From a virus (taxonomy: Duplodnaviria; Heunggongvirae; Uroviricota; Caudoviricetes), in the IMG/VR virus record IMGVR_UViG_2909272501_000001: 24,470 nucleotides of DNA; one strand, 5' to 3'. Position 1 is the stretch's first letter, and each line of letters begins with the position of its first letter. Under the pieces are notes generated by a model. The model was not told the DNA's origin. It did no database searches and was given only the letters and a program-made list of their open reading frames with translations. Of this stretch, positions 537-15,982 are shown one piece after another. Both the position numbers and the translations under genes were made by a program.

Positions 537-556
537 ATGGTGCGATAATAGGAATG
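537..556. repeat. Left copy of an imperfect direct repeat ATGGTGC(C)GATAATAGGA; candidate att core bounding the P4-like element
   Basis: ATGGTGCGATAATAGGAATG here versus ATGGTGCCGATAATAGGAGT at 11862-11881; identical over 17 positions with one 1-nt indel. The two copies bracket the whole P4-like gene set. Confidence 0.5.
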
Positions 557-612
557 AATATTAAAAGTTAAGACATTGATTTATAATAGATTATTATATT
601 CAAAAAATATAA

Positions 613-633
613 CTATACACATATCTATACACA
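613..633. repeat. Two direct copies of the 9-mer CTATACACA (613-621, 625-633); candidate integrase arm-type binding sites
   Basis: Same 9-mer recurs at the other end of the element (11741-11749, and inverted at 11698-11706). Position just inside the putative att core. Confidence 0.3.
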
Positions 634-675
634 CTGCGCGCATCGCTTGTTTTTTACACAATTAAAAGTAAGAAA

Positions 676-972
676 AAAGTTTTTTTTCGAAAGAACTGTT
701 CACACTGTTCACCTTTCTTTTGTCTCCTTTTATTTCAGAGTGATAGGTGGTGAATAATGGGTGAAGGGTGAACATTCGATTCTTCACCTCCGGCATTCTG
801 CCGGTGTGACTCATACCGGTGATTAATCCCCCATACTGAAATCACACAGGGAGAAAAAAAAGTTTTTTTTGATTTGATTGTTCACACTGTTCACCTTTCG
901 TTTTTCTCTTTTAATTTCAGTGTGATAACGGGTGAATACACGGTGAAGGGTGAACAGTGGATTGTTCACCTT
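676..972. repeat. crr-like cis replication region: two ~115-bp direct repeats (period ~182 bp), each with TGTTCACA/TGTTCACC and GGTGAACA-type octamers
   Basis: Octamers at 698-705, 707-714, 767-774, 781-788 and again at 880-887, 889-896, 949-956, 963-970. Lies immediately downstream of the alpha gene, as crr does in P4. TGTTCACC is the alpha-protein binding octamer of P4 (established knowledge). Confidence 0.7.
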
Positions 973-986
973 CGGGGAATTCAGGG

Positions 987-1013
987 ATAAAAAAAGACCG
1001 GCAGATGCCGGTC
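987..1013 (-). terminator. Rho-independent terminator candidate downstream of alpha
   Basis: Perfect 8-bp inverted repeat GACCGGCA/TGCCGGTC (996-1013) followed on the minus strand by a T-run (plus-strand A-run 989-995), 17 nt after the alpha stop. Confidence 0.55.
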
Positions 1014-1029
1014 AGATGAGTCATGATGG

Positions 1030-3363
1030 TCAGGTTGTCGCAGGGTCGTCACATTTTGGCAGCCAGTCGCCGTAGCTTTCCTCTTTCAGCGTCAGGTTGG
1101 TCTGTATCCCCTGTTTGGTATGGCGCTTCTCGTAATTCAGTCCGTATTCCTTCAGCATCACCGGCAGCCCCAGCCCGAACATTTTCAGACTGAGTACATT
1201 CCGGTAGCCGTTTGCCTCCATGTAGGCCAGATAGGCGTGATAGAGGTATTTACGGTAATTGCGCGGGATGATACTGGCGTTCCCCATATACATGCCGCTG
1301 GTCTGCGGCAGGGTTTCCAGATAGCCGATAAAATCAAACGTCGGGTCGGCATCCCGTTTGATGTTCAGCGCCTCGTCTGAGTTCTGCTGGGACTGAAGCA
1401 GTGACCGGGCGAGCATCGGGTCGCTGAACTTCTGCATCAGGTGACGCACGATGACCGCCAGCTCGCGGGTGATTTTGTCCTTAAGCTGCGGGTCGCGCTC
1501 CTGCGGGGCTATCTGTTCCGGGAAGTGAATAATCACCCGCCGGCGTGACACGCCGCCGCTGCGGTCGGTGAAGCGCATCGGGTTATTGTTCACGGCCAGA
1601 ATTACCGCCGGGATATGCGTGGAGTATGCATCCCGGTATTTCGGGTCAACGGACACCGCATCGCCGCCGGTGATGGCCTTGAGTCCGGCACCGTCGCCGC
1701 TCCATTTTTCCTGGTCCGGCAGGCGTATCAGTGAGAAGCCAGTTAACGCGGCACGTTCACGCGGGGATTCCAGCGTCTCGATGGTGGCCGACGTGGCGTT
1801 ATCCTCCCCGGCCAGCAGGGTGGCTATTTCGGCCATGATACTTTTGCCGCTGCCGCCGGGACCGGTCACCTCCAGAAAGAGCTGCCAGTCGTAGCGGTTT
1901 GCCAGCACCATAAACAGTGCGGCCAGAATCACGTCGCGTTTTTCCGCACGACCACCGGCGGCACGGTCAAGCCAGCGCCAGAACGCGGGGGCGTGGGTTT
2001 CCAGCGTTTCCCCTTCCACCGGCGGGGTGAAATCCACATCGCACAGGGTGCGCATCCAGTGTGACGGACTGTGCGGGTGGAACGTGCCGCTCTGCGTGTC
2101 GAGCACGCCGTTACGAAAGCCAATCAGGCGGCGGGAGGGGGCTTCCTGCTGCGGAATAATCAGCTTCAGGGTGTCCACCACGGAGGCCACCTTCCCGGAG
2201 GAGAACGGCGCGCGCAGACGCTGAAACAGCCCGGCCACATCCCGGGCAAAGTCCTGTGGCGGCAGCACCTTCCAGACACCATTTTCATAGCGGGACAGAA
2301 GCTGGCCGTTGGCATCGACCGCGAGCGCCTCGCCGTAATGCTCATAGATACGCATGGCCTTTTCGCTGGTACTCATGGCGGAAAACTCCGCTTCGCTCAT
2401 GGTGTCGAACGGGCTTTCAGCCGGTGGCCGGATGGCATCATAAATGGCCTTACGGGTGGCTTCCCCGCCGTACTGCGTGAAGGCATCATTCCAGTCACCG
2501 AAGACCGGCGGCAGGGCAACAACACCTTCACACGCATCTGCGGCTGCGGCGGCTTTTGTCTGGCCGTCACCGCTGAGGTCACGGTCAGCAGCAAGGACAA
2601 TCTGACAGGCCGGATGCTTCTGCCGGGCAAGGCTGGCCAGAGAAAGGAGGTTCACGGAAGAAAGCGCCACCATCACCGTTTCACCGGTCAGGTGATGCAC
2701 GGTAAGTGCGGTCGCGTATCCCTCCGCTATCCACAGACGTTTTCCGGCCTGATTCTGTCCTTCAAGGGTGTGACAGGTGCCCCTGACCTGTCCGCCTTTC
2801 AGGGTGCGCTTACGGCCGTCAGCGCTGATTAACTGAAGGTTAACCAGTTCGCCGCTGTCGTCATACAGTGGCACCACAAGGTCACCGGCGCACCAGCTCA
2901 CGCCACCGGCTCTGTGTGTGCCGGTCAGCATCCGGCATTCCCGGCCGGGAAAACCCTTGCGGGTCAGGTAGGCGTTACCGGTTCCGGGACGGGTTTTCGC
3001 CATCAGGGTTTGTGCCAGTGCGGCGGCGTTCTTCCGGGCAGCGTCTGTTTCAGCACCGGCGGCGGCCGTCACTGCCGGGTCAGCCGGGGGCAGACAGCCG
3101 GTCACGGCAGCCACCTTTGCGGCCGCGTCGGACGGGGAAACACCAAACACCTTTTCAACTAGTTTCAGGCCGTCACCGGCACCACACTGATTGCAGTACC
3201 AGGTGCCGCGCCCCTCCCTGTCATCAAAACGGAAGCGGTCACTCCCGCCACAGACCGGACAGGGCTGATGACGGTTTTTCAGCACCTGAATCCCCAGCGC
3301 CGGGAGAATACGCGGCCAGTGGCCGAGCGCATGGCTGACGGTGGCGGTTACGTTCATTTTCAT
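1030..3363 (-). CDS. alpha: P4 alpha-type primase-helicase (replication protein)
   Basis: 777-aa ORF, the length I recall for P4 alpha. N-terminal zinc-binding primase motif CPVCGGSDRFRFDD...WYCNQCG, Walker A GPGGSGKS in the C-terminal half. RBS AAGGAGA before the ATG. Flanked by TGTTCACC iterons at both crr-like and ori-like positions. Confidence 0.9.
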   Translation of the reverse strand: MKMNVTATVSHALGHWPRILPALGIQVLKNRHQPCPVCGGSDRFRFDDREGRGTWYCNQCGAGDGLKLVEKVFGVSPSDAAAKVAAVTGCLPPADPAVTAAAGAETDAARKNAAALAQTLMAKTRPGTGNAYLTRKGFPGRECRMLTGTHRAGGVSWCAGDLVVPLYDDSGELVNLQLISADGRKRTLKGGQVRGTCHTLEGQNQAGKRLWIAEGYATALTVHHLTGETVMVALSSVNLLSLASLARQKHPACQIVLAADRDLSGDGQTKAAAAADACEGVVALPPVFGDWNDAFTQYGGEATRKAIYDAIRPPAESPFDTMSEAEFSAMSTSEKAMRIYEHYGEALAVDANGQLLSRYENGVWKVLPPQDFARDVAGLFQRLRAPFSSGKVASVVDTLKLIIPQQEAPSRRLIGFRNGVLDTQSGTFHPHSPSHWMRTLCDVDFTPPVEGETLETHAPAFWRWLDRAAGGRAEKRDVILAALFMVLANRYDWQLFLEVTGPGGSGKSIMAEIATLLAGEDNATSATIETLESPRERAALTGFSLIRLPDQEKWSGDGAGLKAITGGDAVSVDPKYRDAYSTHIPAVILAVNNNPMRFTDRSGGVSRRRVIIHFPEQIAPQERDPQLKDKITRELAVIVRHLMQKFSDPMLARSLLQSQQNSDEALNIKRDADPTFDFIGYLETLPQTSGMYMGNASIIPRNYRKYLYHAYLAYMEANGYRNVLSLKMFGLGLPVMLKEYGLNYEKRHTKQGIQTNLTLKEESYGDWLPKCDDPATT

Positions 3364-3377
3364 GGTGTTGTTCTCCT

Positions 3378-3698
3378 TCAGTGCAGTACCGGCGCTTTTA
3401 TGTGACGGGCACAGAGTTCATCCATCACAACCAGCCCGAGAAAGGACAGCGACGGCGCGGCCTTCAGGGGGCCGGATTCCATTAAATCTTCCAGCAGGGC
3501 ACAGGCTATCTGACGCCCTTTTTCCTCACCGTGCTGGCGCAGATAAAAGCCCTCCAGCTCAGCGGCGATGGCCGCCTCCAGTGACTCAAGGGTGAGATGC
3601 GGGTAGCGGTGCTGACGTTCGCACACGGTCAGCCAGGCACAGGCGACAGCGCGACGGTAAAGGGCAGCGCGTAAGACGGGCGGTAAGGGTGTTTTCAT
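3378..3698 (-). CDS. Hypothetical protein, 106 aa, immediately upstream of alpha (position and length match what I recall as P4 orf106)
   Basis: ORF with RBS GGGAGGA upstream; stop 15 bp before the alpha start; GC-rich backbone codon usage. Confidence 0.5.
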
Positions 3699-3833
3699 TT
3701 GCTTTCCTCCCTGTGACAGATGACTGCATTCCGTGCCGGTTGCATTAACTGATAAGGCATATCTGCGTCTCCTGAAGACGTGCGTATCCCTGCGCGAATA
3801 CGCACATTTAATTTTTCGGGTGTCGTTTTTTAA

Positions 3834-4289
3834 TTACAGATAATTGCGGTAACTGTTATCCGGGGTGGTTTCCGGGTCAGGCTCCGTGCGGGGAATTTCC
3901 CGCCATTCCCGCGCTACCGGTGCTGCCCGGCTGACCGGAACAGTGTCCTGCGGGTAAATATCCAGATATTTCTCCCGCCATTTCTGTAATTCCGGGTCTC
4001 CGGCCATTTCTTTCAGTACCGCATGCCGGTTTACGGGGCTGCGTTTAAACAGGTCAGGACGGTCACAGGTAAATTCCCGCAGAAAACGCCCCAGCGGGAT
4101 GTCTGTGGTGCGTCCGTCAGCGAGGATACGCACAAGGATACTGAATTTACGGCGGTACGGGTTCCAGACAATGTCCGGGCAGCGGTACGGCATTTCCCAC
4201 GGAATACCGTCTTCCAGAATGCCGACCACGGCCACATCGGGAAAACCGGCAGAACGGTAAATCTCACCGGGCTGGGGAAAATCAAACAT
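3834..4289 (-). CDS. Hypothetical protein, 151 aa if started at the internal ATG at 4289 (track ORF extends to 4331)
   Basis: ATG at 4289-4287 overlaps the stop of the upstream 95-aa gene (ATGTTTGA), indicating translational coupling. Length matches what I recall as P4 orf151. Confidence 0.45.
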   Translation of the reverse strand: MFDFPQPGEIYRSAGFPDVAVVGILEDGIPWEMPYRCPDIVWNPYRRKFSILVRILADGRTTDIPLGRFLREFTCDRPDLFKRSPVNRHAVLKEMAGDPELQKWREKYLDIYPQDTVPVSRAAPVAREWREIPRTEPDPETTPDNSYRNYL

Positions 4290-4569
4290 GCGTCCTGTCT
4301 CCCCGGTCTTTCTGCTGGGCGAGAAAATCACGGCACAGGCCTTTGGCTTTCAGCTCATTCAGCACAAAATCAATATCCTCATTCAGGTAGCTGAAAATAT
4401 GCGGAATGTAGAGCTGATGCAGGCCGGAGAGTTCACGGTGAATCAAATCACCCCCAACAAACTGGGATACGGCGCTGGCGCGGTTGAGCTTATGGTAAGC
4501 CTCAATGCTGAGGTGTTCACGGGCGTCATGACGCGCTGAGACGGTCTGAGGGGCTTTTTTATTACGCAC
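4282..4569 (-). CDS. Hypothetical small protein, 95 aa, GTG start; possibly the epsilon-equivalent of the P4 left operon
   Basis: ORF in operon context. GTG start overlaps the stop of the upstream ORF (GTGCGTAA). The epsilon assignment rests only on length and order, not on recognised sequence. Confidence 0.45.
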
Positions 4570-5161
4570 GGGACACCCCCATCACCGGCAGACGGGCAGC
4601 AAGGGAGAGCACATAGTCACGGACAAGGGAACGGCGGGCACTGCGTTCATCACCGGCGACGGTGCGAAGCATGCAGATACGGGGATGACGGTCTGCGCGA
4701 CGGACAGCCGCAAACACAAAGACAAATTCAGGGTGTGAAGGGGTAAGGGTCGTAGCCATAAGGCAACCTCCGATAACAGCATAAATGACGCTATCGCCGG
4801 AGTTTCCACGCTCGATGGCGATAGCCCAGACGGGGGTGGAAATACCGGCGTTATCGGAAACCGGCCAGCCCGGAGGCTGCCCCGCCTGAGCTACCATTGA
4901 CTCTGCGGTATAATGAGCGGACGCGGGCAGAATGCACGGAGTGCCATTTGCTCGACTGACCACACACCACACCATAATCTGGCGCTCTGTGGCGTTGATT
5001 GCGACACAAAAAAAGACGCATGGCGCGTCATATGTCGCCGATAACATACTCGGGTTTCCACGCCCGGCTGCCGATTTTGCGGCAGCGGAAAAACTATATC
5101 CGCAAATGCCGGAAAAAGGCAAGCCAGAAAAAGGGAGTTTTTGCAGAGCGGGCATCATCAT
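4562..5161 (-). CDS. Uncertain ORF (199 aa from the internal Met; 214 aa on the track) covering the position where P4 carries its kil/eta/cI immunity region
   Basis: Open frame whose stop overlaps the next gene's start, but the translation is low-complexity and several other frames are also open in this GC-rich stretch. May be a misread of small genes and/or an RNA locus. Confidence 0.2.
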
Positions 5162-5424
5162 GCGTCGTACCCCCGTTTGCGTCCGGCAATGCGTCCGGCC
5201 ATCCATGCGGTGACTTCAGAGTGCAGCCAGGCCACATTTTTACCGCCAAGACTCACCTGCGGCGGAAATTCCCCCTTACGGATGAGTTCGTAGATGGTCG
5301 AGCGTGACAGGCCGCACAGGTGCATCACTTCCGGAAGACGCAAAAAACGCTCCTGTGTGATGTCCGGCAGCGGCATCAGTGGCGTCACAGGGGCAGGAGA
5401 CGGGGAAGAAAAAACAGCTTGCAT
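5158..5424 (-). CDS. AlpA/Vis-like small DNA-binding regulator (88 aa)
   Basis: Motif ...[29 protein letters not shown]... is typical of the AlpA/excisionase-like HTH family. RBS GAGG 8 nt upstream of the ATG at 5424. Same position and length as what I recall as P4 orf88 (vis). Confidence 0.65.
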
Positions 5425-5702
5425 CGGGCTACCTCGTTAATGTCCATACAGCACCGGATAAGTCCGTCCGGCTTCGGGTAGCGCTTTATTTTGTGAATAT
5501 TTTTGGCAGACGCAACAGGGGGGATTTGTTCCGGCAGCCTTACAATGGCTGTGTGTTTTTTGCACATCAGCGCCAGATAGCTTTAAAACGCTCTGGAAGG
5601 AGCTGGAAAAAATTATAGTGAAATACAAATTGTTTTTTCTTATTTATTTCAGTTAATTAATAAAAATAAAAAGTAATAAACAGCACAAAAAGTCCATGAA
5701 CG

Positions 5703-5806
5703 GGTGAACAGTGGTGAACAGACGGTGAACAGTCATTACTGCGATTGTTCACCCTTTAACTTACTGTATTACTTATCTTTTTTCTTATGGTGAACAGAGG
5801 TGAACA
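5703..5806. repeat. ori-like iteron cluster: six copies of GGTGAACA/TGTTCACC
   Basis: Octamers at 5703-5710, 5713-5720, 5724-5731, 5746-5753 (inverted), 5789-5796, 5799-5806, inside an AT-rich intergenic region ~4.8 kb from the crr-like repeats. P4 ori1 lies about 4.5 kb from crr and carries the same octamer (established knowledge). Confidence 0.65.
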
Positions 5807-5885
5807 GTAAAATATAAAAAAACAAACAGTAAGCCGGTTTTTCCTGCGACCTTTTCCTGGCTTGCCGGTCTGAGGATGAGTCTCC

Positions 5886-5903
5886 TGTGTCAGGGCTGGC
5901 ACA
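5886..5903 (+). promoter_or_regulatory. TGT-N12-ACA dyad; candidate Ogr/Delta-type activator site of the late promoter upstream of sid
   Basis: TGT (5886-5888), 12 nt, ACA (5901-5903), located ~75-90 bp upstream of the sid ATG. P2/P4 late promoters carry this dyad upstream of the -35 region (established knowledge). Confidence 0.4.
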
Positions 5904-5975
5904 TCTGCAATGCGTCGTGTTGTTGTCCGGTGTACGTCACAATTTTCTCAACCTGAAGTGACGAGGAGCCGGAAA

Positions 5976-6710
5976 ATGTCTGACAACACCATCCCTGAAT
6001 ATCTGCAACCCGCACTGGCACAACTGGAAAAGGCCAGAGCCGCCCACCTTGAGAACGCCCGCCTGATGGATGAGACCGTCACGGCCATTGAACGGGCAGA
6101 GCAGGAAAAAAATGCGCTGACGCAGGCCGACGGAAACGACGCTGACGACTGGCGCACGGCCTTTCGTGCAGCCGGTGGTGTCCTGAGCGACGAGCTGAAA
6201 CAGCGCCACATTGAGCGCGTGGCACGCCGGGAGCTGGTACAGGAATATGACAATCTGGCCGTGGTGCTGAATTTTGAACGCGAACGCCTGAAAGGGGCGT
6301 GTGACAGCACGGCCACCGCCTACCGGAAGGCACATCATCACCTTCTGAGTCTGTATGCAGAGCATGAGCTGGAACACGCCCTGAATGAAACCTGTGAGGC
6401 GCTTGTCCGGGCAATGCATCTGAGCATTCTGGTACAGGAAAATCCGCTCGCCAACACCACCGGGCATCAGGGCTACGTCGCACCCGATAAAGCTGTCATG
6501 CAGCAGGTGAAATCATCGCTGGAACAGAAAATAAAACAGATGCAAATCAGCCTCACCGGCGAGCCGGTTCTCCGGCTGACCGGACTGTCAGCGGCAACAC
6601 TTCCGCACATGGATTATGAGGTGGCAGGCACACCGGCACAGCGCAAGGTGTGGCAGGACAAAATAGACCAGCAGGGAGCAGAGCTTAAGGCCAGAGGACT
6701 GCTGTCATGA
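5976..6710 (+). CDS. sid: Sid, capsid size determination (external scaffold) protein
   Basis: 244 aa from the ATG at 5976 preceded by RBS GAGGAG (track ORF starts earlier at 5910). Length matches recalled P4 Sid. Followed by delta and psu in P4 order. Stop overlaps the delta start (ATGA). Confidence 0.85.
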   Translation: MSDNTIPEYLQPALAQLEKARAAHLENARLMDETVTAIERAEQEKNALTQADGNDADDWRTAFRAAGGVLSDELKQRHIERVARRELVQEYDNLAVVLNFERERLKGACDSTATAYRKAHHHLLSLYAEHELEHALNETCEALVRAMHLSILVQENPLANTTGHQGYVAPDKAVMQQVKSSLEQKIKQMQISLTGEPVLRLTGLSAATLPHMDYEVAGTPAQRKVWQDKIDQQGAELKARGLLS

Positions 6711-7207
6711 TTTACTGCCCGTCGTGTGGACATGTTGCTCACACCCGTCGCGCACATTTCATGGACGATGGCACCAAGATAATGATTGCACAGTGCCGGA
6801 ATATTTATTGCTCTGCGACATTTGAAGCGAGTGAAAGCTTTTTCTCTGACTGTAAAGATTCAGGAATGGAATACATTTCAGGCAAACAGAGATACCGCGA
6901 TTCACTGACGTCAGCCTCCGGCAGTATGAAACGCCCGAAAAGAATGCTTGTTACCGGATATTGTTGTCGGAGATGTAAAGGCCTTGCACTGTCAAGAACA
7001 TCGCGGCGTCTGTCTCAGGAAGTCACCGAGCGTTTTTATGTGTGCACGGATCCGGGCTGTGGTCTGGTGTTTAAAACGCTTCAGACCATCAACCGCTTCA
7101 TTGTCCGCCCGGTCACGCCGGACGAACTGGCAGAAAGCCTGCATGAAAAACAGGAACTGCCGCCAGTACGCTTAAAAACACAATCATATTCGCTGCGTCT
7201 GGAATGA
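6707..7207 (+). CDS. delta: Delta, Ogr-family zinc-finger late transcription activator (tandem Ogr-like domains)
   Basis: 166 aa. Two Cys4 Ogr-type motifs: CPSCGH...CRNIYCSATF and CCRRCKG...CTDPGCGLVF. Confidence 0.85.
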   Translation: MIYCPSCGHVAHTRRAHFMDDGTKIMIAQCRNIYCSATFEASESFFSDCKDSGMEYISGKQRYRDSLTSASGSMKRPKRMLVTGYCCRRCKGLALSRTSRRLSQEVTERFYVCTDPGCGLVFKTLQTINRFIVRPVTPDELAESLHEKQELPPVRLKTQSYSLRLE

Positions 7208-7280
7208 GGGCTGCCGGTTAACACCGGCCGTCGCCGCACACCGTATTTTTATTCTTCAGCATGATGAGAAAGAGATAACG

Positions 7281-7853
7281 ATGGAAAGCACAGCCTTACA
7301 GCAGGCCTTTGACACCTGTCAGAATAACAAAGCAGCATGGCTGCAACGCAAAAATGAGCTGGCAGCGGCCAAACAGGAATATCTGCGGCTTCTGTCAGGA
7401 GAAGGCAGAAACGTCAGCCGCCTGGACGAATTACGCAATATTATCGAAGTCAGAAAATGGCAGGTGAATCAGGCCGCCGGTCGTTATATTCGTTCGCATG
7501 AAGCCGTTCAGCACATCAGCATCCGCGACCGGCTGAATGATTTTATGCAGCAGCACGGCACAGCACTGGCGGCGGCACTGGCACCGGAGCTGATGGGCTA
7601 CAGTGAGCTGACGGCCATTGCCCGAAACTGTGCCATACAGCGTGCCACAGATGCCCTGCGTGAAGCCCTTCTGTCCTGGCTTGCGAAGGGGGAAAAAATT
7701 AATTATTCCGCACAGGATAGCGACATTTTAACGACCATCGGATTCAGGCCTGACGCGGCTTCGGTGGATGACAGCCGTGAAAAATTCACCCCTGCGCAGA
7801 ACATGATTTTTTCGCGTAAAAGTGCGCAACTGGCATCACGTCAGTCTGTGTAA
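7281..7853 (+). CDS. psu: Psu, polarity suppression / capsid decoration protein
   Basis: 190 aa, N-terminus MESTALQQAFDTCQNNKAAWLQRKNELAAA..., last gene of the sid-delta-psu operon. Confidence 0.85.
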   Translation: MESTALQQAFDTCQNNKAAWLQRKNELAAAKQEYLRLLSGEGRNVSRLDELRNIIEVRKWQVNQAAGRYIRSHEAVQHISIRDRLNDFMQQHGTALAAALAPELMGYSELTAIARNCAIQRATDALREALLSWLAKGEKINYSAQDSDILTTIGFRPDAASVDDSREKFTPAQNMIFSRKSAQLASRQSV

Positions 7854-7888
7854 AATTCCCCGAAAATCCGCCCGTTTTTACTGAAAAA

Positions 7889-7972
7889 AGCCATGCATCG
7901 ATAAGGTGCATGGCTTTGCATGCGTTTCCCTGCCTCATTTTCTGCAGACCGCGCCATTCCCGGCGCGGTCTG
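7889..7972 (+). other. Two strong hairpins after psu (7889-7915, 9-bp stem; 7945-7972, 11-bp perfect stem); possible terminator and/or packaging-region structure
   Basis: AGCCATGCA...TGCATGGCT and CAGACCGCGCC...GGCGCGGTCTG inverted repeats. Only the first is followed by a weak T-rich tract. Confidence 0.3.
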
Positions 7973-8017
7973 AGCGTGTCAGTGCAACTGCATTAAAACC
8001 GCCCCGCAAAGCGGGCG

Positions 8018-8036
8018 GGCGTGGCGGGGGGAGCAT
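8018..8036. other. cos-like site (candidate cohesive-end sequence)
   Basis: GGCGTGGCGGGGGGAGCAT matches 15 of 19 positions of the P2/P4 cohesive end as I recall it (GGCGAGGCGGGGAAAGCAC). It sits right after psu, where cos lies in P4, next to a GC-rich imperfect palindrome (7999-8019). Confidence 0.35.
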
Positions 8037-8118
8037 TGCGCGCTAAGGCTGATATTATAATTTTCTTTAATTCTATTTGGTATTTTGGCTTTATTCGTCA
8101 GAAGGAACGTTTAGAAAT

Positions 8119-8146
8119 AGACCACTACAATGGATTGTAGCGGTCT
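8119..8146 (-). terminator. Hairpin terminator candidate ending the int-RT-partner operon
   Basis: 12-bp inverted repeat AGACCACTACAA/TTGTAGCGGTCT (one G-U-compatible mismatch), 4-nt loop, ~10 nt downstream of the partner gene stop, followed by a modest T-rich tract on the minus strand. Confidence 0.4.
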
Positions 8147-8155
8147 GCATGATAT

Positions 8156-8896
8156 CTAGCGTTGCATTTCAGTTACTATGAAATTTTCTTCTGTAATAGA
8201 ATTCATTATCTCAAAGTACAATTCTTCAGGTTGAATAAACGCCAACTCTTTGCAAAGGTTGACAATGGTATCACTATAAGTGATACCCATCCGAGGATTG
8301 AAAAGCTCAAATCTCTTGATGTTTCTTTTGTTTTTTGAGTAAAAGTTTAAAGTGAAATATATTAGCACCTGTCTAAGATCGTAAACACTAAACTTCCTAT
8401 CTCCTGATTTTATTTCCACAAGAACATTTGAATAATAAATATCGCCATATGAATTATTTATTACTCCGCATCCATCGAATTGTGGAGACACTTCAATTTG
8501 GTTTTCCATTCCATATCGAGACAAAATGTTTCTTGCTATTTCCCTTATGGCATTGTACTCAACCATGCTTAAGGGTAGCTTGAAGTTAGAACCGTAAGCG
8601 AACCGCTGTAGATATTCTTTTGTTTTTTCAAAAACAACCTGAAAATCAGCATTATGGAAGATATCATGTGCTGAAAGAATATTTCTGTCTAACGAATCAT
8701 TCTGTATTGCCCTATATAAATTAAATGCGCACTCATTAACAAAGACGTTATTTGACCTATTAGCGCAGTCATCTAGAGGAGGATAAACGTCCTCGATGAG
8801 ACTGCCGTTAATGATGCGTATGAAATTATTAGCATTTGGAAGCAATTGATTCCAAAATGAAGTGAATTTTCGAGAAAACGTTAATTCAGATATCAT
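8156..8896 (-). CDS. Hypothetical 246-aa protein, partner of the reverse transcriptase; possible nuclease-like effector
   Basis: ATG overlaps the RT stop (ATGA at 8893-8896), with RBS GAGGA inside the RT 3' end. Very AT-rich. Segment GDIYYSNVLVEIKSG could be a D...ExK (PD-(D/E)xK-like) core, but this is unverified. Confidence 0.75.
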   Translation of the reverse strand: MISELTFSRKFTSFWNQLLPNANNFIRIINGSLIEDVYPPLDDCANRSNNVFVNECAFNLYRAIQNDSLDRNILSAHDIFHNADFQVVFEKTKEYLQRFAYGSNFKLPLSMVEYNAIREIARNILSRYGMENQIEVSPQFDGCGVINNSYGDIYYSNVLVEIKSGDRKFSVYDLRQVLIYFTLNFYSKNKRNIKRFELFNPRMGITYSDTIVNLCKELAFIQPEELYFEIMNSITEENFIVTEMQR

Positions 8897-10521
8897 AGCG
8901 CATCCTCAAGATTTCTTGCGGTATGCCTTTTACTTGCCCAATCCCTGTAAATCACCTCTACAAAGTTGAATGTTTTCTTATTATGCTCTCTCCAGTGCCG
9001 TCCTTCATCACCTAAGATGTAACTGGAAACGATCAATAGTCTTCTCTGCAACGGATGCATTGCAGAGAAATTTTTTTTGATATCAGAAAGCCATGCGTAA
9101 GAATTAATTTTTGCCATTGACTGTGTAACTATGTTCTTGACTAAGATGCTTTCTGGATTGTTATTGTATATTTCACTAAGGATTAGGGTGGATTTTTCTG
9201 AATTTTCTTTTGAGAGCATTCGGGCTACATAGGCTAAGTTGAGCTCAGTACTCAAAATATATGAATCTTGTTTAATTAGTGCAGTTATTTTATCAAGAAT
9301 AATATCTTTGGTTTCTGTGCTTAATTTTTGCCAGTTGGAGTTAGCTACTTGAATTATAGTTGTAAATATTGGATATAACTCATGCAAGTTATTAAACATT
9401 ACTTTGAAAGCACTACTTATTATTTCATCTGATGTTGCTGAGAATGCCTTTATCAAATGCTTGCTAAAAGATTGGTTAATTTTTGATTTTTGTAACTCAC
9501 TACTCAGCATAGCTAACAAGTCAAAATCTTTTAAAGATTCCTTTATCTCTTCATATTCCTCTATCGCATTTGCTGAGTAAGGATCGAATCTTATAGGAAG
9601 ACTCATAAATTTAGCCTTCATAGGAGATTCTTCATCTTCATCATTACCATGCAACTTAGCTTTAGTTACTGAAAGGAACTCTTCTTTAGTAACAATATTG
9701 GTTTTTTGTTTCTGTAAAGTTAGCCCTTCATTTTCCATCAGTTTTTTACTAAGCAAAGTTAAAATCTTATGAGCATCCTCTCTAGAGTTACAAAAAATAA
9801 CAAAGTCGTCGACATAACGCTTATAGTTGATTCTATTCATAGACAATAATTTATCAATAGAATCTAGAGCTAGTTCTGCTAATATTCTAGAGGCAGGACA
9901 TCCAACTGGTACTCCATATGATTTTGTTTCACTAAATGTCTGTAGTAATTTCTTGATTTTCCCAGAGTAATCTTTATTGGGGTCGACTCTATCTAACGCA
10001 TTTTCTAAACGGTGGTGATAAATACGCGGATAGAAATCTGCTATATCGCATGTAAGTACATACTTTATTTCATCGTTAGAACATTCAGAGATACTGTCTT
10101 CTTGATATTTTCTCCAAGAGATCTCTTTATCAAAAAGAGAACCATCAGCAAGGTTTGGTTTAAAGCGATATGAATAAACCTGCGTTTTAGTAGATCTATT
10201 CCTTTCAATATCATCAGCGATTTTTAAAACTAACCCAAGAAAAAAAGCATTCCAGAATGGATCAATTTGGGTCGCCCACCTGTAACCATAATAACCAATA
10301 CTTGAAAAGCTATTAATTATGTTTGGTGGAATCTCGATCCTTTTATTTTCAAAGTCATTAAATGTTTGCATTAATGCAGTTTTTACTTTCTCCTTATCAT
10401 CTTCAAATAACCGACTTTCAAATGGGTAAGGGAAAATATCTGTATCGCCGTGCTTTATAATATTTTCCAATGCAAGCTCAAAGCAATTTTCTAGTTTACT
10501 ACTATCAAACTCGTTACTCAT
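8893..10521 (-). CDS. Reverse transcriptase, 542 aa, with ~230-aa alpha-helical C-terminal extension; UG/Abi-like defence-associated RT candidate
   Basis: RT motifs in canonical order: LTCDIADFYPRIYHHRL (motif A-like), SYGVPVGCPASRILAELAL (motif B'-like), KRYVDDFVIF (YVDD catalytic motif C), NEGLTLQKQKTNIV (motif D/E-like). RBS AAGGAGA; start overlaps the int stop by 8 nt. No retron-type VTG motif seen. Confidence 0.85.
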   Translation of the reverse strand: MSNEFDSSKLENCFELALENIIKHGDTDIFPYPFESRLFEDDKEKVKTALMQTFNDFENKRIEIPPNIINSFSSIGYYGYRWATQIDPFWNAFFLGLVLKIADDIERNRSTKTQVYSYRFKPNLADGSLFDKEISWRKYQEDSISECSNDEIKYVLTCDIADFYPRIYHHRLENALDRVDPNKDYSGKIKKLLQTFSETKSYGVPVGCPASRILAELALDSIDKLLSMNRINYKRYVDDFVIFCNSREDAHKILTLLSKKLMENEGLTLQKQKTNIVTKEEFLSVTKAKLHGNDEDEESPMKAKFMSLPIRFDPYSANAIEEYEEIKESLKDFDLLAMLSSELQKSKINQSFSKHLIKAFSATSDEIISSAFKVMFNNLHELYPIFTTIIQVANSNWQKLSTETKDIILDKITALIKQDSYILSTELNLAYVARMLSKENSEKSTLILSEIYNNNPESILVKNIVTQSMAKINSYAWLSDIKKNFSAMHPLQRRLLIVSSYILGDEGRHWREHNKKTFNFVEVIYRDWASKRHTARNLEDAL

Positions 10522-11698
10522 TCACATTCTCCTTAATAAAAATATAATCTGAATACCACTGCATCATATCACGGCGTTTATCAATATATTGAGCATGATT
10601 ATACGTACCTCTAATATTATTCTTATCTATATGAGCAAGCTGTATTTCTATCCAAGCCGAATCATATCCTTTTTCGTGGAGGATAGTAGATAAGGAATGT
10701 CGAAATCCATGACCAGTAAGTTTTCCACCATAACCAATACGCTTGATAACTTGGTTAATACTCGCCTCACTCATAGGCTTGTTCGGATCGTTCCGCCCCG
10801 GAAAAACATAACTATACTTCCCTGTCATCATCTTGAGTTCATTTAGCAAATCTAACGCTTGAGTCGACAAAGGCACAAGGTGTGATCTGCGCATTTTCAT
10901 CCTTTCAGCAGGAATTTCCCAAATAGCGTTATCTAAATCAAATTCTGACCATAATGCCGCACGTAATTCGATGGTTCTAACACCTGTAATCATGAGCAAT
11001 TTCGTGGCAATCAGGACAAGCCGACTTCCGGTATATCCGTTTAAGGCGCGAAGAAAATCAGGTATCTCATTAGCCTTTAAGAACGGGAAATGATTTGATT
11101 GGTGTACATTGAGGGCGCTTGAAAGATCCGCAGCAGGGTTAAACTCAGCCCTTCCAGTAGCAATGGCATAGCGGAAAACTTCTGAGCATCGCTGCCGAAC
11201 TTTGCGCATTTTTTCTAATGCACCGCGCTTTTCGATTTTACGCAGCACATTAAGCAGTTCTAGCGGTTTAATCTCTCCCACTGGCCTTGTTCCCACATAA
11301 GGAAAAATGTCGTTCTTAAACGCTTCCATGATGTCTGATGCATATCCCGCCGACCATTTGGTAGACTTCTGTTGATGCCACTCTCTGGCTATCTTTTCGA
11401 AGGCGTTCTCTGACTCTGTTTGCAGAGCCAGCTTTTGCTCTTTTCGAACCTCACTAGGGTTCTTTCCTTCTGCCACAAGTTTTCGAGCTTCATCACGACG
11501 GGAACGAGCATCAGCAAGAGTGATCGTTGGGTAAACACCAAGCGAGATCATTTTGGGTTTACCGGCATAGCGATAACGAAATCGCCAGCTTTTACTTCCA
11601 TTTGGCTCTACAAGTAAAGACAACCCTTGCCCATCCCCAAGTGTATAGGCTTTAGCTTCAGGTTTAGCACGGCGAATCTGCATATCATTTAGGGGCAT
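10514..11698 (-). CDS. int: P4-type (DUF4102-family) tyrosine integrase
   Basis: 394 aa. N-terminal ...RRAKPEAKAYTLGDGQGLSLLVEPNGSKSWRFRYRYAGKPKMISLGVYP... is characteristic of P4/CP4-57-type integrases. Catalytic R...HxxR...H...Y residues (GVRTIEL, GHGFRHSLS, LAHIDKN..RGTYNHAQY). Confidence 0.88.
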   Translation of the reverse strand: MPLNDMQIRRAKPEAKAYTLGDGQGLSLLVEPNGSKSWRFRYRYAGKPKMISLGVYPTITLADARSRRDEARKLVAEGKNPSEVRKEQKLALQTESENAFEKIAREWHQQKSTKWSAGYASDIMEAFKNDIFPYVGTRPVGEIKPLELLNVLRKIEKRGALEKMRKVRQRCSEVFRYAIATGRAEFNPAADLSSALNVHQSNHFPFLKANEIPDFLRALNGYTGSRLVLIATKLLMITGVRTIELRAALWSEFDLDNAIWEIPAERMKMRRSHLVPLSTQALDLLNELKMMTGKYSYVFPGRNDPNKPMSEASINQVIKRIGYGGKLTGHGFRHSLSTILHEKGYDSAWIEIQLAHIDKNNIRGTYNHAQYIDKRRDMMQWYSDYIFIKENVNE

Positions 11699-11749
11699 GT
11701 GTATAGAATTCCAAAATCGAACAGGAACATATACATAATCCTATACACA
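11698..11749. repeat. Arm-type 9-mers near the int start: TGTGTATAG (11698-11706, inverted) and CTATACACA (11741-11749)
   Basis: Same 9-mer as at 613-633; the first copy overlaps the int start codon. Confidence 0.3.
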
Positions 11750-11861
11750 TTTAGTACTGGATTCTACTGGAAAGTTATGGACTAATACGAACAGTAAAAA
11801 CAAAAAATCTTTTATAAAACAGTGCGGTTATGGATAAATACGGATGTTTGAAGAAGTGGAG

Positions 11862-11881
11862 ATGGTGCCGATAATAGGAGT
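11862..11881. repeat. Right copy of the imperfect direct repeat; candidate att core shared by both elements
   Basis: ATGGTGCCGATAATAGGAGT, see 537-556. The first 9 nt (TGGTGCCGA) resemble the reverse complement of a tRNA 3' end, but no T-arm follows. Confidence 0.5.
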
Positions 11882-12023
11882 AAAACACTCGATTAATCTC
11901 GTGTTAATGCCATCACCTACGACCATTACTAATTGATTGAATCTGATAGAAAAATTATCATTTTCTATACCTTACAATCAATTTACACATTACAAACGCT
12001 CCGACACTTTAGCCGGAGATTTT

Positions 12024-13301
12024 ATGAGATACAAGCCTAACCAATACTTAATCTGTGATTCTTACGGTAACTACTATTTAAGGATCACGCTGCCTGTGTA
12101 TATGCAGCCCTTTTTTGAAGGAAAAAGGACGTTTGTCAGAAGTCTACACACAAGTAATCTTCGTGTGGCACGTCGAAAGCGTGATCAGATTGCAGATGAA
12201 TACCATTGCTTACGGGAGAGTGTTGCCCCTGTAAACAGCACAATAGAAAACACGCTGGAACTGTTACGCAGTAAGGCTAAATACGCCAAAACAGCTACCA
12301 GAATGCAAGATACAGCGTCTTCGTGTCCGTCATTGCTTAAAATTCTTGAAATCTACCTGACAATTAACAGCACGAAGAAGAAGCCAGCCACTTTAGCTAA
12401 GGCAAGAAAAGCGGTAGAGATGTTTCTCTCCTACCGTAAAAAGCCTGATATTGCATTGCAAGATGTAAGCCGCACCACTGTTACAGGCTGGATTGAACAC
12501 ATGCAAAAAACCCTTTCACAACAATCAATTGCAAATTATATCAGCCCAATGGTCCAGCTATGGGAGTTAGCTTCATCACGTTACCACGATGCGCCAGAAA
12601 GGGCGCTCTCCCCCTGGCGAGGGCATAGGCTTGATGTGGCACAAAGTAGAGAGAGCTACGAGGCATTTTCTAACAAAGAGCTATTGCAGGTGTTGCAAGT
12701 ATTTTCCGGTGATTCAGCAGAAAACAAAGAAATGACGGCTTTGTGTCTTATCGGTTTATATACAGGTATGCGGATCAATGAGATAGCAAGTATCACAATA
12801 GACGATGTGAAAGAGATCGAAGGTGTGCTGTGTTTTGAAATCACACAGGGAAAAACGAAAGCTGCGGCACGTCTTGTGCCTGTGCATAACCTTATCACTC
12901 CGTTGGTGTTGTCGCTGCGTGAAAAGCCTCACAATGGCTTTTTGTTCTATCACGCCAGCATTACAGAACGTGCTGACGGTAAACGCTCTACGTGGCATAC
13001 ACAACGATTTACAAGAGCTAAACGAAAGGCTTTAGGGGAAAAGGGAACAGAAAGGAAAGTGTTTCATTCTCTGAGACACGGAGTAGCACAGCTTCTTGAT
13101 CGAAATCAAATTCCAGAAGACAGGATCGCCCTTCTCCTGGGCCATACACGCGGCAATACAGAAACATTCCGCACATATAGCAAGAATGCAGCTTCTCCAG
13201 TAGAGCTTAAAAAATATATTGAGCTTTTACGCTACCCTGAAATAGAGAAAGGCTTATCAATCAATAAAAAATCAAATTTAAGGCGTAAAACAACGCCATA
13301 G
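12024..13301 (+). CDS. Second tyrosine recombinase/integrase (425 aa from the ATG at 12024; track ORF begins at a TTG at 11937)
   Basis: Catalytic signature GMRINEI (R), FHSLRHGVAQ (HxxR), LLGHT (H), TYSKN (Y). RBS GGAG 5 nt before the ATG. AT-rich. Confidence 0.75.
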   Translation: MRYKPNQYLICDSYGNYYLRITLPVYMQPFFEGKRTFVRSLHTSNLRVARRKRDQIADEYHCLRESVAPVNSTIENTLELLRSKAKYAKTATRMQDTASSCPSLLKILEIYLTINSTKKKPATLAKARKAVEMFLSYRKKPDIALQDVSRTTVTGWIEHMQKTLSQQSIANYISPMVQLWELASSRYHDAPERALSPWRGHRLDVAQSRESYEAFSNKELLQVLQVFSGDSAENKEMTALCLIGLYTGMRINEIASITIDDVKEIEGVLCFEITQGKTKAAARLVPVHNLITPLVLSLREKPHNGFLFYHASITERADGKRSTWHTQRFTRAKRKALGEKGTERKVFHSLRHGVAQLLDRNQIPEDRIALLLGHTRGNTETFRTYSKNAASPVELKKYIELLRYPEIEKGLSINKKSNLRRKTTP

Positions 13302-13381
13302 ACGTAATAAAGAGGCTTCAATATAGATTGATGCCTCTTTTATGATTATCTCGTTACAGAGCGTTTCATAGGCGTTTAAGG

Positions 13382-14059
13382 CTATTGTTTAAATACTGGC
13401 GTTACAACGTCTTGCCCTGGGCTTTTTTGATTTTTCTGTTCTGTTGTATTTACCTGCATTTTAACCTGTCCCCCTACAGATTTATTTGGTGCTGTTTTTA
13501 CAGCAATAGCATTAGTGGTGGCCTTAGAGACAAGACGAATTTGCTCAAAATCAAGAGTAAACAATAAGCTTTCGCTTGCTTCTTCTTCGTAAGACATGCC
13601 AACTAACACAACGTTGTCATAATTTTTTAACTCAGTGACAAGTAGGAAAGGTTGGCGACTGTCCATCAACTGATTTAGGTATTCAAGCATAAGCATACGT
13701 CGATTGCCGTTAATTCCCGCATTCTTAATCATATCGGGATTGAGTTTCAATACGGTTTCAGAGATACGCCCCTGTAATGTGAACTTGTTATTCCGTATTT
13801 GAACATGATCACTAACTTCTGATCCTGATTCGACGGCATAGCTTGTAACGTCTGCATTTCGGCTAACTTTCGTCGATTCCACGTTATCAAATGATAATGC
13901 CCGGTAGTCATTGTAAGCAGCATTTGCACCACTGCCGAGGTTAGAGGTAATAATCGCAAAGCCGTTACCCCCTTTAGTTGTTCTACCGTTGCTATCGTTG
14001 CTTGTGCTGTTGATTTTCGCCTCAGTCGGGCGACCAATGGTTAACGGACCCATTGCCAT
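13382..14059 (-). CDS. Hypothetical protein, 225 aa (possible virion-associated protein)
   Basis: ORF with RBS AAGGA; last gene of a co-oriented leftward block that includes capsid-like candidates. No recognisable motif. Confidence 0.45.
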   Translation of the reverse strand: MAMGPLTIGRPTEAKINSTSNDSNGRTTKGGNGFAIITSNLGSGANAAYNDYRALSFDNVESTKVSRNADVTSYAVESGSEVSDHVQIRNNKFTLQGRISETVLKLNPDMIKNAGINGNRRMLMLEYLNQLMDSRQPFLLVTELKNYDNVVLVGMSYEEEASESLLFTLDFEQIRLVSKATTNAIAVKTAPNKSVGGQVKMQVNTTEQKNQKSPGQDVVTPVFKQ

Positions 14060-14106
14060 AATTTGTAATCCTTATTTAAGGGGGCTAAACAGCCCCACAG
14101 TGATGA

Positions 14107-15948
14107 TTAATAGGTTGACCCGCCTGACATAACACCCAGCGTTAATAGCTTGCTAAACTCAGCGGAGGATGCCTTTGATTTGAAGTCGATAAATTCGCTC
14201 AATCGTCCGGTGTCTGATTCGATAGTTAGCGGCACTTCTGCATTTACTTGTAATTCTGGATTGAAGTTAATAACAGGTGCAAAGGTGTAAGAAGGAGTCT
14301 TGATAGCTTGTTGTGCTGCACTCTGTTTCAGATTTGCAATGTTTTGTCCTTCGAGAGTGTATTGATTTACAGCCTGCGCCCCGCCTACCGTTTCTTCTGG
14401 CGTAAACCAGCCTTTAATAGTGTTAAACAGGGAATTGCTGTTATCTGGCTTAGTTGTTCCGGTGCCAGCGCCTTTATATTGATCAGGAACGAGATTAGAA
14501 AGATTCTGTTTCATCCCTTCGTTAGACAGTGGCGGTGCATCACCTAAATTCTTCTGAATAGCTTCCGTCTTCTCGTCGTTTTTCATCAGCCAGTTGATTG
14601 CTTTCATTACGGCGTTAACCAATCCGCCGATAGCCTCGCCTAATTTGGTAAACATTGGCAGCATTGCAACCATACTCTTTTTGAACTCTTCAATCACAGC
14701 AGGATCGAGAGATTTCATAAAGCCATCAACAAAGGCGATCCCTTGTGAGTCAGAAAGCCCACTAAGTGCATTATTCAGTTCACGGAATTTAATAACGCTT
14801 TCCTGTTGTGCCTGTGTTACCCAGCGCCCTGATTCTCGTTGTTCTCGTGCTGATTGTTCCACTTCTTTAGCGGAGCGTGTCCAGTATTTAGAGGTGAGCA
14901 TCAAATCATCAGCCAGATCTTCCAGACGACTACCGATTTGTGCATCTGAATAGCCTTTAGCTACCATTCCCTGAACTGCTTTACTAACCAGACCAGCCGG
15001 ATTATCAGCAAAGTCTTTTAGATCCTTTTTAGTTAGGAATCCTTCATTCATTAAAGTATTGATGCCGCTATCGCCGCCCTTCCATTCTCCTTTACCAGTT
15101 TTCTTATCAACTACATATTCAGCTTCATCATAAGATTTGGTTGCACGTTCACGCACATCTTTCATCTGATCCAGATACTTACGTTTACCTTGTTCGCCCA
15201 TCATTGAATCAACGCCGTTTTTATACGCCCATTGTTCAACATCGTTCATCTGGTTAACGTCTACACCGCCCAGCTTCGCACGGCTATACAATTCACCCAG
15301 CGTTTCAGCATTCGCAAAGCTGTTAGTAACAAATTCAGAGGCTTTGCTCATAGCCATATACGTAGCGCCAGCGCCTAAGCCACCCAGCATAACAGCCGCA
15401 GCACCGCCGCCAATACTCCCGCTACCCTTAACAGGTGCATAGGCTTTAGCGTGAGCGTTACGATTGCCATTAATCTTACGTTGTTGCTGTTGTAGGCGTT
15501 TCATTTGGCTATTCATACGTGCCAGACTAATAGCGCCTCTTTCATATTGGAGGGCAATTTCTCTAGCCTGTGCAATAGCTTTATATTGTTCCGCTACAGA
15601 AAGACGGTGCATTGCACTAATGCTTGATCCAACGTCTAAAAGCTTTAATTCTGCCTTCTCTTTGCGTGCTGCCAGGGCTTTTTGTTCTCTTGCAACTACA
15701 CGTTGAGCGGCTAATTGTGCTTTAGCATTGGCTTTATCTGCCTGTGCTTGCTTTTTAGCAATATCGTCTACGTCTTTTTTTGCTTTAGCGGTTGATTGTT
15801 TATGTGTCTTAACACGCAATTCTATATCTTTCACCGCCGCCATTTGTTTACGAAGTTTTTCTACTTCTGCTTTTGCTTTCTCTAATGATGGTCGATCAAC
15901 CTGGAAGGTGACAACGTTTGATAAGCGGCTGACGTTAAGTTCTAACAT
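14107..15948 (-). CDS. Large coiled-coil / Gly-rich protein, 613 aa; tape-measure-like or other minor virion structural protein candidate
   Basis: N-terminal ~170 aa is Lys/Ala/Gln-rich with heptad-like periodicity, followed by a Gly-rich hydrophobic segment (GSIGGGAAAVMLGGLGAGATYMAM) and then a globular region. RBS AGGGA. Confidence 0.55.
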   Translation of the reverse strand: MLELNVSRLSNVVTFQVDRPSLEKAKAEVEKLRKQMAAVKDIELRVKTHKQSTAKAKKDVDDIAKKQAQADKANAKAQLAAQRVVAREQKALAARKEKAELKLLDVGSSISAMHRLSVAEQYKAIAQAREIALQYERGAISLARMNSQMKRLQQQQRKINGNRNAHAKAYAPVKGSGSIGGGAAAVMLGGLGAGATYMAMSKASEFVTNSFANAETLGELYSRAKLGGVDVNQMNDVEQWAYKNGVDSMMGEQGKRKYLDQMKDVRERATKSYDEAEYVVDKKTGKGEWKGGDSGINTLMNEGFLTKKDLKDFADNPAGLVSKAVQGMVAKGYSDAQIGSRLEDLADDLMLTSKYWTRSAKEVEQSAREQRESGRWVTQAQQESVIKFRELNNALSGLSDSQGIAFVDGFMKSLDPAVIEEFKKSMVAMLPMFTKLGEAIGGLVNAVMKAINWLMKNDEKTEAIQKNLGDAPPLSNEGMKQNLSNLVPDQYKGAGTGTTKPDNSNSLFNTIKGWFTPEETVGGAQAVNQYTLEGQNIANLKQSAAQQAIKTPSYTFAPVINFNPELQVNAEVPLTIESDTGRLSEFIDFKSKASSAEFSKLLTLGVMSGGSTY

Positions 15949-15982
15949 GCTAATTGTTTCCCTGTATTATGATTGTTGTTTA

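Follow-up and report, generated by a model that had tools for sequence, protein, structure and literature searches.

How does the packaging site of a satellite phage adjoin its variable genes, and where exactly does one end and the other begin? The question was raised by a DNA stretch of 24,470 nt (IMG/VR record IMGVR_UViG_2909272501_000001, called here the window), in which GC-rich palindromes and a possible cohesive end lie next to a sharp turn to AT-rich sequence. The analysis described below suggests, with a rough probability of 0.88, that positions 7875–8043 represent the cos site, where the DNA of a complete P4-like satellite integrated at thrW would be cleaved and packaged. Such a layout is already known, cos from 1990 and the hotspot of variable genes adjacent to it from 2022. 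The only unusual aspects of this locus are a private allele of the 19-nt cohesive end and a mosaic joint located at cos.

A P4-Like Satellite at thrW

Homology to P4 together with the att repeats delimits a complete P4-like satellite prophage of about 11.3 kb (approximately 538–11881), integrated at thrW of the E. coli chromosome. Its part spanning alpha through psu (674–8017) is 97.4% identical at the nucleotide level to P4 4291–11624. Within this span, the genes of the alpha primase (1030–3363, minus strand), sid (5910–6710), and delta (6707–7207) were recognized by their identity to P4; delta also displays the Pfam zinc finger domain Ogr_Delta. The C4 immunity RNA (4814–4901, minus strand) was detected with Rfam (77.9 bits). 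The last backbone gene before cos is psu (7281–7853, plus strand), encoding the polarity suppression / capsid decoration protein of 190 aa; it was aligned with the annotated psu of P4, and its identical copies in E. coli are annotated in RefSeq as “phage polarity suppression protein”. At the opposite end of the element resides the gene of a tyrosine integrase of 394 aa (10514–11698, minus strand; Pfam Arm-DNA-bind_3, Phage_int_M, and Phage_integrase), representing a thrW-specific allele.

The att repeats, located by direct reading and pattern search, are imperfect copies of the 3′-end of tRNA-Thr, TGGTGCGATAATAGGAAT at about 538–555 and GGTGCCGATAATAGGAGT at 11864–11881, situated 11.3 kb apart. 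A tRNA scan of the whole window detected no tRNA, and the att site was recognized via a sister genome, that of strain 2013C-4974, where the same element is found between paoD and thrW (tRNA-Thr)/proA. Overall, the core genes (int, alpha primase, the epsilon/ash region, AlpA/Vis, sid, delta, and psu), the C4 RNA, the length of about 11 kb, and the flanking att repeats are those of a P4-like satellite.

The Predicted Cohesive End and the Core of cos

The predicted 5′ cohesive end of 19 nt, GGCGTGGCGGGGGGAGCAT (8018–8036, plus strand), was assigned by comparison with the homologous mature ends of P4, P2, and 186. The preliminary description of the locus, made without database searches, had noticed here a match at 15 of 19 positions to the P2/P4 cohesive end. 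The reference sequence used there proved to be correct: GGCGAGGCGGGGAAAGCAC is the annotated cosL of NC_001895 and, equally, the first 19 bases of NC_001609. The count of 15/19 holds as well, and the likeness to P2/P4 does reflect homology, but the 19-mer is closer to that of 186 (GGCGTGGCGGGGAAAGCAT, annotated as cos; 17/19) and closer still to a widespread type designated here T..AGAGCAT (GGCGTGGCGGGGAGAGCAT; 18/19).

By itself, a match of 15/19 is only marginal: block shuffles of the window yielded at least 15/19 somewhere in 9 of 200 cases, and a chance match of 14/19 to the cohesive end occurs in the chromosomal flank at 30–48. The identity of cos is settled by the sequence context. Window 7700–8017 is 98.7% identical to P4 11307–11624, and this alignment runs to the terminal base of P4 in its linear form and no further. 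Since the match terminates at the mature right end of P4, a homologous cut site is expected at 8017|8018. The nicks are predicted at 8017|8018 in the top strand and at 8036|8037 in the bottom strand; the annotation of 186 gives the cut position for each strand.

The 19-mer is embedded in a core of 55 bp (7989–8043, plus strand), outlined by alignment with circularized P4, P2, and 186 and by a haplotype table of 156 distinct loci. The core is composed of the box TGCATTAAAA, a variable spacer of 10–11 nt, AAGCGGGCG, the 19-mer, and TGCGCGC. The comparison proposed earlier as a check, i.e., alignment to the cos of P2 and P4, revealed 50 matching positions of 55 with P4 and 49 with P2; the figure for 186 is 48. 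The same core follows psu in about 180 loci. These comparisons support the interpretation of the site as a true homologue of the P2/P4 cos, found at the expected place directly 3′ of psu. The terminal TGCGCGC partly mirrors the context of the left nick (GCGGGCG vs. the reverse complement GCGCGCA), and this may be the reason why the core ends there. The block corresponds to the “55-bp cos region” credited to Ziermann and Calendar (1990) in PMC3931495 and PMC9594776, where the sequence of the P2 cohesive end is likewise quoted.

Distribution of the Cohesive-End Allele

The 19-mers of the loci fetched by their relation to Psu (80 from IMG/VR and 6 from GTDB) fall into few types, namely P2/P4, 186, and T..AGAGCAT. 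The latter was found in 106 IMG/VR contigs, 83 of them encoding Psu and 19 encoding a P2-like portal beside cos; being present in both helpers and satellites, it is regarded as a working type common to both. In the window, a single base departs from this type: position 13 (8030) is G and not A. The exact 19-mer was encountered in only two contigs of IMG/VR, both representing the same satellite with the same cargo. Among 5,426 complete E. coli genomes, 100 likewise possess it, each as a single copy located in this satellite; the carriers were isolated from humans, pigs, chickens, cats, dogs, sheep, frogs, and water. At the same time, IMG/VR, the E. coli genomes, and the phage collection yielded no helper phage with this 19-mer, in which positions 13 and 14 are both G. 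The best match to the cos of the window in the phage collection was 89.6% over 48 nt, but helpers whose 19-mer differs by a single base do exist, namely the 19 portal-bearing contigs.

At an identity of at least 99%, the cargo and the allele of int are found in 104 genomes, in 103 of them over at least 80% of the query, and as many genomes (103) carry the junction of cos and cargo. The int allele was found only together with this cargo and this variant of cos. The 19-mer allele with G at position 13 is, then, private to one satellite lineage integrated at thrW.

As no helper phage with this allele was found, its efficient cleavage by an available terminase is not guaranteed. One may suppose that the site is a homologue of cos that no longer works: the A-to-G change at position 13 may have crippled the cleavage, leaving a defence island that has become domesticated and is transmitted vertically at thrW in the manner of the cryptic prophage CP4-6. 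This possibility is considered unlikely. Apart from the absence of the allele from every helper phage searched, it would account for the complete linkage of the cos allele, the cargo, and the int allele as well as for the same chromosomal site in both copies whose flanks were read (strains 2013C-4974 and GPEC1176). It would also agree with the decay of at least one copy of the lineage, marked by a sid-to-epsilon deletion and an IS1 in int, so that some copies are no longer mobile. However, all positions invariant across helpers and satellites are intact in the window, and positions 13–14 vary naturally (AA, AG, AT), bona fide helpers included. Positions 5 and 19 of the cohesive end are not the same in P4 and in 186. 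Phage 186 can serve as a helper of P4, so some mismatch between the ends of the satellite and its helper is tolerated. Moreover, the copy in the window possesses every core gene of P4 and a P4-like length of 11.3 kb, and the element occurs in 100 genomes from varied hosts and water. Judging from the variation at positions 13–14 among functional types and from the integrity of the invariant positions, the cos of this element is probably functional.

Conserved Boxes and Hairpins Left of the Cut

Comparison with helpers and with diverged satellites (whose Psu is about 60–65% identical) showed that boxed conservation extends for about 140 bp, and only to the psu side of the cut. The boxes comprise a T-run (7875–7879), TGCAT at 7894, 7907, 7917, 7983, and 7989, the core of a palindrome, and the 55-bp core described above; the T-run and the first three TGCAT boxes mark the distal part of the extended cos region (7875–7927, plus strand). 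The motifs GGTGCAT and TTGCAT show no variation among 12 aligned satellites and helpers, P2 and 186 included; across the sequences of 18 helpers and 80 diverged satellites, they are conserved at a level of at least 80–90%. The density of TGCA is 6 per 189 bp here vs. 5.5 per kb in the window, and P2-like phages are matched in BLAST from window position 7884 onwards. Such a one-sided arrangement suggests a cosB-like recognition region, to which the terminase may bind.

The preliminary description spoke of stacked hairpins. The hairpins are present, but they turned out to be three different things: a likely terminator, a palindromic box, and a weak repeat within the cos core. The first of them (7887–7917, plus strand; 11 bp, −21.5 kcal/mol, z = −4.2) includes the first two TGCAT boxes as its arms and is followed by the T-rich tail TTTGCATGCGTTT. 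It looks like the intrinsic terminator of psu overlapping the TGCAT boxes; the consensus terminator scan missed it because of its 9-nt loop. In P2 and 186, the TGCAT boxes are kept and the stem is lost.

The second is the GC-rich palindrome at 7945–7972 (arms 7945–7955 and 7962–7972, spacer of 6 nt), for which a perfect stem of 11 bp had been claimed; a repeat search found precisely this stem (−24.4 kcal/mol, z = −5.1). Satellites and helper phages have the conserved core of this palindrome, the box CGCC(A)...GGCGCGG, in common. The core pairs are kept in 73–92% of 84 aligned sequences, but covariation in the same 84 sequences was no better than in shuffles, 98–134 of 500 shuffles scoring as high. 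Thus, the box appears as a conserved duplex sequence, with no sign of selection for pairing in either RNA or DNA. The interpretation of 7945–7972 as a structured RNA was rejected, given covariation at the level of shuffles and no Rfam match (in 7800–8250, no family at E <= 1).

The third hairpin, reported earlier as a palindrome at 7999–8019, does exist as a repeat (7999–8018) in the variable spacer of the P2/P4-type cos core. It is imperfect, comprising 6–8 pairs and a bulge, and folds no better than shuffled sequences (z = −1.8, 11 of 200 shuffles as good). It is not kept in the diverged satellites and is absent from the T..AGAGCAT group.

Hairpins at such a place could also be purely transcriptional, i.e., serve to end transcription of psu on the plus strand and of the cargo operon on the minus strand, with cos confined to its 55-bp core. 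This alternative is distinctly improbable. It draws on the T-rich tail of the hairpin 7887–7917, on the hairpin 8110–8147 of the minus strand lying directly after the nuclease stop codon of the cargo, and on the minus-strand repeat 8018–7999, which is followed by TTTTAATGCA and was flagged by the scan as terminator-like; the literature also gives a cos of 55 bp (PMC3931495, PMC9594776). Yet, the TGCAT boxes and CGCC..GGCGCGG are conserved in P2, 186, and 18 P2-like contigs, although the upstream gene in these helpers is not psu and the remaining flank is unrelated. The palindrome 7945–7972 lacks a T-run on either strand, and for the hairpin 7887–7917 the two roles are compatible. In addition, better transduction was obtained with a cosmid whose cos flanks were longer, which its authors tentatively ascribe to the flanks (PMC9594776).

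The Edge of the Cargo Slot

In 62 distinct close satellites, the commonest base accounts for at least 0.9 of the sequences at positions through 8043, and its share is at most 0.5 from 8044 onwards. The edge between backbone and cargo is 8043|8044, at the end of TGCGCGC and 7 bp past the 19-mer. A sharp turn to AT-rich sequence, taken as the start of the cargo, had been placed immediately to the right of the 19-mer. The turn itself is evident, the GC content falling from 70.9% in 7989–8043 to 32.1% in 8044–8155 (33.4% over 8044–10513), but its position has to be shifted to this edge. Since nothing past 8043 is constrained, 8044 is the edge of the slot for differing cargo.

Genomic data corroborate this position. 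Of the 5,426 complete E. coli genomes, 1,080 contain the psu–cos segment. The match continues through the cargo in 103 of these and breaks off at window positions 8041–8068, most often at 8043, in the remaining 977. In all the fetched Psu loci reaching that far, the cos core follows psu, and the sequence 3′ of TGCGCGC differs in nearly every distinct element (about 80 IMG/VR and 6 GTDB loci). That the 19-mer is a fortuitous GC-rich match and the AT-rich turn an ordinary island edge, a reading to which the shuffles and the chance match at 30–48 lend some color, is virtually inconceivable, being refuted by the P4 alignment at 98.7% identity to the terminal base, by the shared core (48–50 of 55 positions in P4, P2, and 186), and by the psu-locus comparison with its recurrence of the core in some 180 loci.

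The cargo (8044–10513) is a predicted anti-phage system, DRT type 8, recognized with PADLOC and Pfam. Its operon (8156–10521, minus strand) consists of two genes, one for a reverse transcriptase (8893–10521, minus strand; PADLOC Drt8, E = 4.9e-166 over the full model length; Pfam RVT_1) and the other for a PD-(D/E)xK nuclease (8156–8896, minus strand; PADLOC RTasPDDEXK, E = 5.5e-69). DRT8 systems are characterized by a reverse transcriptase of the UG class next to a PD-(D/E)xK nuclease. The operon is transcribed towards cos, and the variable region starts with 112 bp of non-coding sequence (8044–8155, minus strand) on its 3′ side. There, directly after the stop codon of the nuclease gene, the minus-strand hairpin 8110–8147 (−17.3 kcal/mol, z = −4.8) is likely the terminator of the cargo operon. 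On the opposite side, the cargo is flush against the integrase gene, which forms the far edge of the slot; the stop codon of int overlaps the first possible start codon of the reverse transcriptase reading frame.

The same edge is encountered in helpers. In four P2-like contigs, AT-rich defence-like inserts begin right after TGCGCGC and end before the portal gene, so the edge is common to helpers too. These inserts encode GmrSD/NsnA-like and HEPN proteins, a UvrD-like helicase, and an AAA_15/PtuA-like ATPase. The suggestion that P2 and P4 carry their cargo on opposite sides of cos as a general rule, which might account for the two seldom exchanging defence genes, was considered in this connection. 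In the P2 reference, old/tin are indeed located on the psu-equivalent side of cos. The rule was rejected, because 4 of 12 helper contigs with the T..AGAGCAT type harbor defence-like inserts of 2–2.8 kb on the side used by P4, after TGCGCGC.

A Mosaic Joined Within cos

The variable cargo was initially thought to be inserted next to the packaging site. It does adjoin cos, but this is not a simple insertion: the whole right arm, i.e., the 19-mer, the cargo, int, and att, belongs to another lineage. The same right arm, with the T..AGAGCAT 19-mer, is carried by a Citrobacter satellite (L011) and an IMG/VR contig (L165). The amino-acid identity to these two elements is 93% for the integrase, 97% for the reverse transcriptase, and 93% for the nuclease, but only 63% for Psu. 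At the nucleotide level, the window is 72–79% identical to L011 left of the cut and 83–96% identical right of it. The comparison with P4 gives the opposite picture, with 4 mismatches per 318 nt on the left and 5 per 26 nt on the right (Fisher p = 1.7e-4). The substitutions on the right (8022, 8030, 8031, 8036, and 8037) fall into the 19-mer and the next base, and beyond the core, in the right arm, nothing is alignable with P4. By these sequence comparisons, the element is a mosaic in which a P4-like left arm is joined within cos to a right arm like that of the Citrobacter satellite.

Informative sites confine the joint to 8018–8021; the interval between positions 8017 and 8022 contains the predicted top-strand nick. 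The combination of the P4-type left flank (G at position −1) with a T-type 19-mer is rare, being seen once among the 99 distinct contexts of an arbitrary IMG/VR sample. It is tempting to suppose that the cos nick serves as a joint for the exchange of whole satellite arms, and cohesive ends as substrates of recombination were the subject of a speculation in Rousset et al. 2022 (PMC9122126), with which the position of the joint agrees. If so, the locus would preserve a natural footprint of recombination mediated by cohesive ends, the 19-mer would travel with the cargo arm, and the private G at position 13 would mark a satellite tolerating or exploiting a mismatch with the cos of its helper. The idea is speculative and, in our estimation, has little chance of being true. 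Recombination via short homology in the conserved core explains the joint equally well.

A recombination hotspot exactly at the nick finds no support at the population level in the 99 distinct cos contexts of the arbitrary IMG/VR sample. There, the linkage between positions −1 and +5 is strong (D′ = 0.94, r2 = 0.47) and exceeds that between neighboring sites of the spacer; in addition, hybrid 19-mers display joints inside the cohesive end too.

Putative Packaging and Comparison with Known Systems

P2 terminase acts on circular monomers. By homology, during the late program of a P2-family helper, the excised and replicated circle of the satellite would be recognized by the helper terminase (gpM/gpP in P2), which would introduce staggered nicks at 8017|8018 and 8036|8037, giving rise to 5′ cohesive ends of 19 nt. 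The 11.3-kb genome would then be packaged into small capsids of the size dictated by Sid. All of the sequence shared by satellites and helpers, including the boxes to which the terminase may bind, is confined to the psu side of the cut (the T-run, five TGCAT boxes, the palindrome, TGCATTAAAA, and AAGCGGGCG), the 19-mer, and TGCGCGC. The DRT8 cargo is transcribed towards cos, with transcription probably ending at the hairpin 8110–8147.

The cos of P4 (NC_001609) is likewise situated directly after psu, the order being psu, cos, variable genes, int. The right arm of P4 carries gop/beta/cII and a leuX-type int; DRT8 and the thrW-type int found here display no detectable similarity to it. The cos of P2-family helpers also features a GC-rich end of 19 nt flanked by AAGCGGGC(G/A) and TGCGCGC, the box TGCATTAAAA, the TGCAT boxes, and the palindrome, but lacks the private G at position 13.

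According to Rousset et al. 2022 (PMC9122126), the hotspot of P4 between psu and int is directly adjacent to cos; Figure 1A of the same work depicts conserved and variable cos-proximal sequence, and an equivalent hotspot exists in P2-like phages. A 2026 survey (PMC13586616) extended this architecture to thousands of elements. In the defence hotspot of P4, each satellite harbors a differing AT-rich defence system beside cos (Rousset 2022); the DRT8 recognized by PADLOC occupies this place in the window, and nothing essential differs. What is added here is the nucleotide-exact edge, common to satellites and some P2-like helpers, and the evidence that the 19-mer and int have travelled with the cargo in this element. 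The one-sided boxed conservation over about 170 bp in helpers and satellites is another modest addition.

For annotation, the site tells where the transduced DNA starts and ends, fixes the left edge of the cargo slot exactly, and shows which way the cargo is oriented at the left end of the packaged genome. The alleles of cos fall into a few types common to helpers and satellites, and this lineage, with its rare recombinant and private allele, could offer a test case for the tolerance of helper terminase to mismatches.

By way of analogy, the cos of lambda, with its cosN and cosB, also seems comparable in its staggered nicks, 5′ ends, partly symmetric contexts, and one-sided recognition sequences. 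It differs in lacking sequence homology to the site described here and in the length of the overhang, 12 nt in lambda vs. 19 nt here.

Inserts Adjacent to cos in P2-like Phages

Four P2-like, portal-bearing IMG/VR contigs carry, directly 3' of the same TGCGCGC that terminates the cos core of the satellite and ahead of the portal gene, AT-rich inserts of 2–2.8 kb with a GC content of 35–36% (L121, 5847–7790; L122, 119–2955; L168, 4106–6206; L182, 6923–8983). Defence-like proteins are encoded in three of these four inserts, i.e., a GmrSD/NsnA-like protein together with a HEPN protein, a UvrD-like helicase and an AAA_15/PtuA-like ATPase; the insert of L182 had no match in PADLOC.

At the other end of the satellite cargo, the stop codon of int overlaps the earliest start codon available to the DRT8 reverse transcriptase frame (10514–10521), hence the DRT8 cargo lies flush against the integrase gene. 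The int alleles of other E. coli become alignable only 30–80 nt inside the 3' end of the gene, which puts the right boundary of the exchanged segment within int or beyond it. The same satellite was also found in a decayed form in E. coli GPEC1176 (NZ_CM142791.1, 2405311–2423346), where a deletion runs from orf106 to delta and an IS1 resides inside int; this copy retains psu, cos and the DRT8 operon intact.

Sequence Elements of the cos Region

The left side of the cut harbors five TGCAT-type boxes (at 7894, 7907, 7917, 7983 and 7989) and a sixth TGCA at 7943, in the sequence TCTGCAGA. Boxes of this type are kept in P2, 186 and in P2-like contigs that have nothing else in common with the satellite, and may represent a cosB-like array for terminase recognition; no description of TGCAT boxes beside cos was found in the literature searched.

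Hybrids between the P2-type cohesive end and the T..AGAGCAT type (common to P2-like helpers and P4-like satellites and one base from the 19-mer of the window) were documented in the cos cores of several loci: GGCGAGGCGGGGAGAGCAT in L017 and L026, GGCGTGGCGGGGAAAGCAC in L023 and GGCGAGGCGGGGAAAGCAT in L078. Such hybrids show that sites within the 19-mer are shuffled by recombination or mutation. The P2 cohesive end is also matched at 14 of 19 positions at 30–48, in the chromosomal flank on the paoD/LysR-pseudogene side; this match, devoid of any cos context, was judged to be due to chance.

Other Features of the Window

Rfam matches on the minus strand to the C4 antisense RNA (4814–4901), isrK (5009–5086) and the c4 a1/b1 target (5047–5099) make up the block at 4814–5099, which is the satellite's RNA immunity system of the P4 type. 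A second integrated element (11882–24470; GC about 39%), arranged in tandem with the satellite, separates it from thrW and starts after a partial tRNA-Thr repeat (11864–11881). It encodes a tyrosine integrase (11937–13301, plus strand) and, on the minus strand, a Dit-like protein (13382–14059), a tape-measure-like protein (14107–15948) and a replication-initiator-like ORF (20027–20620).
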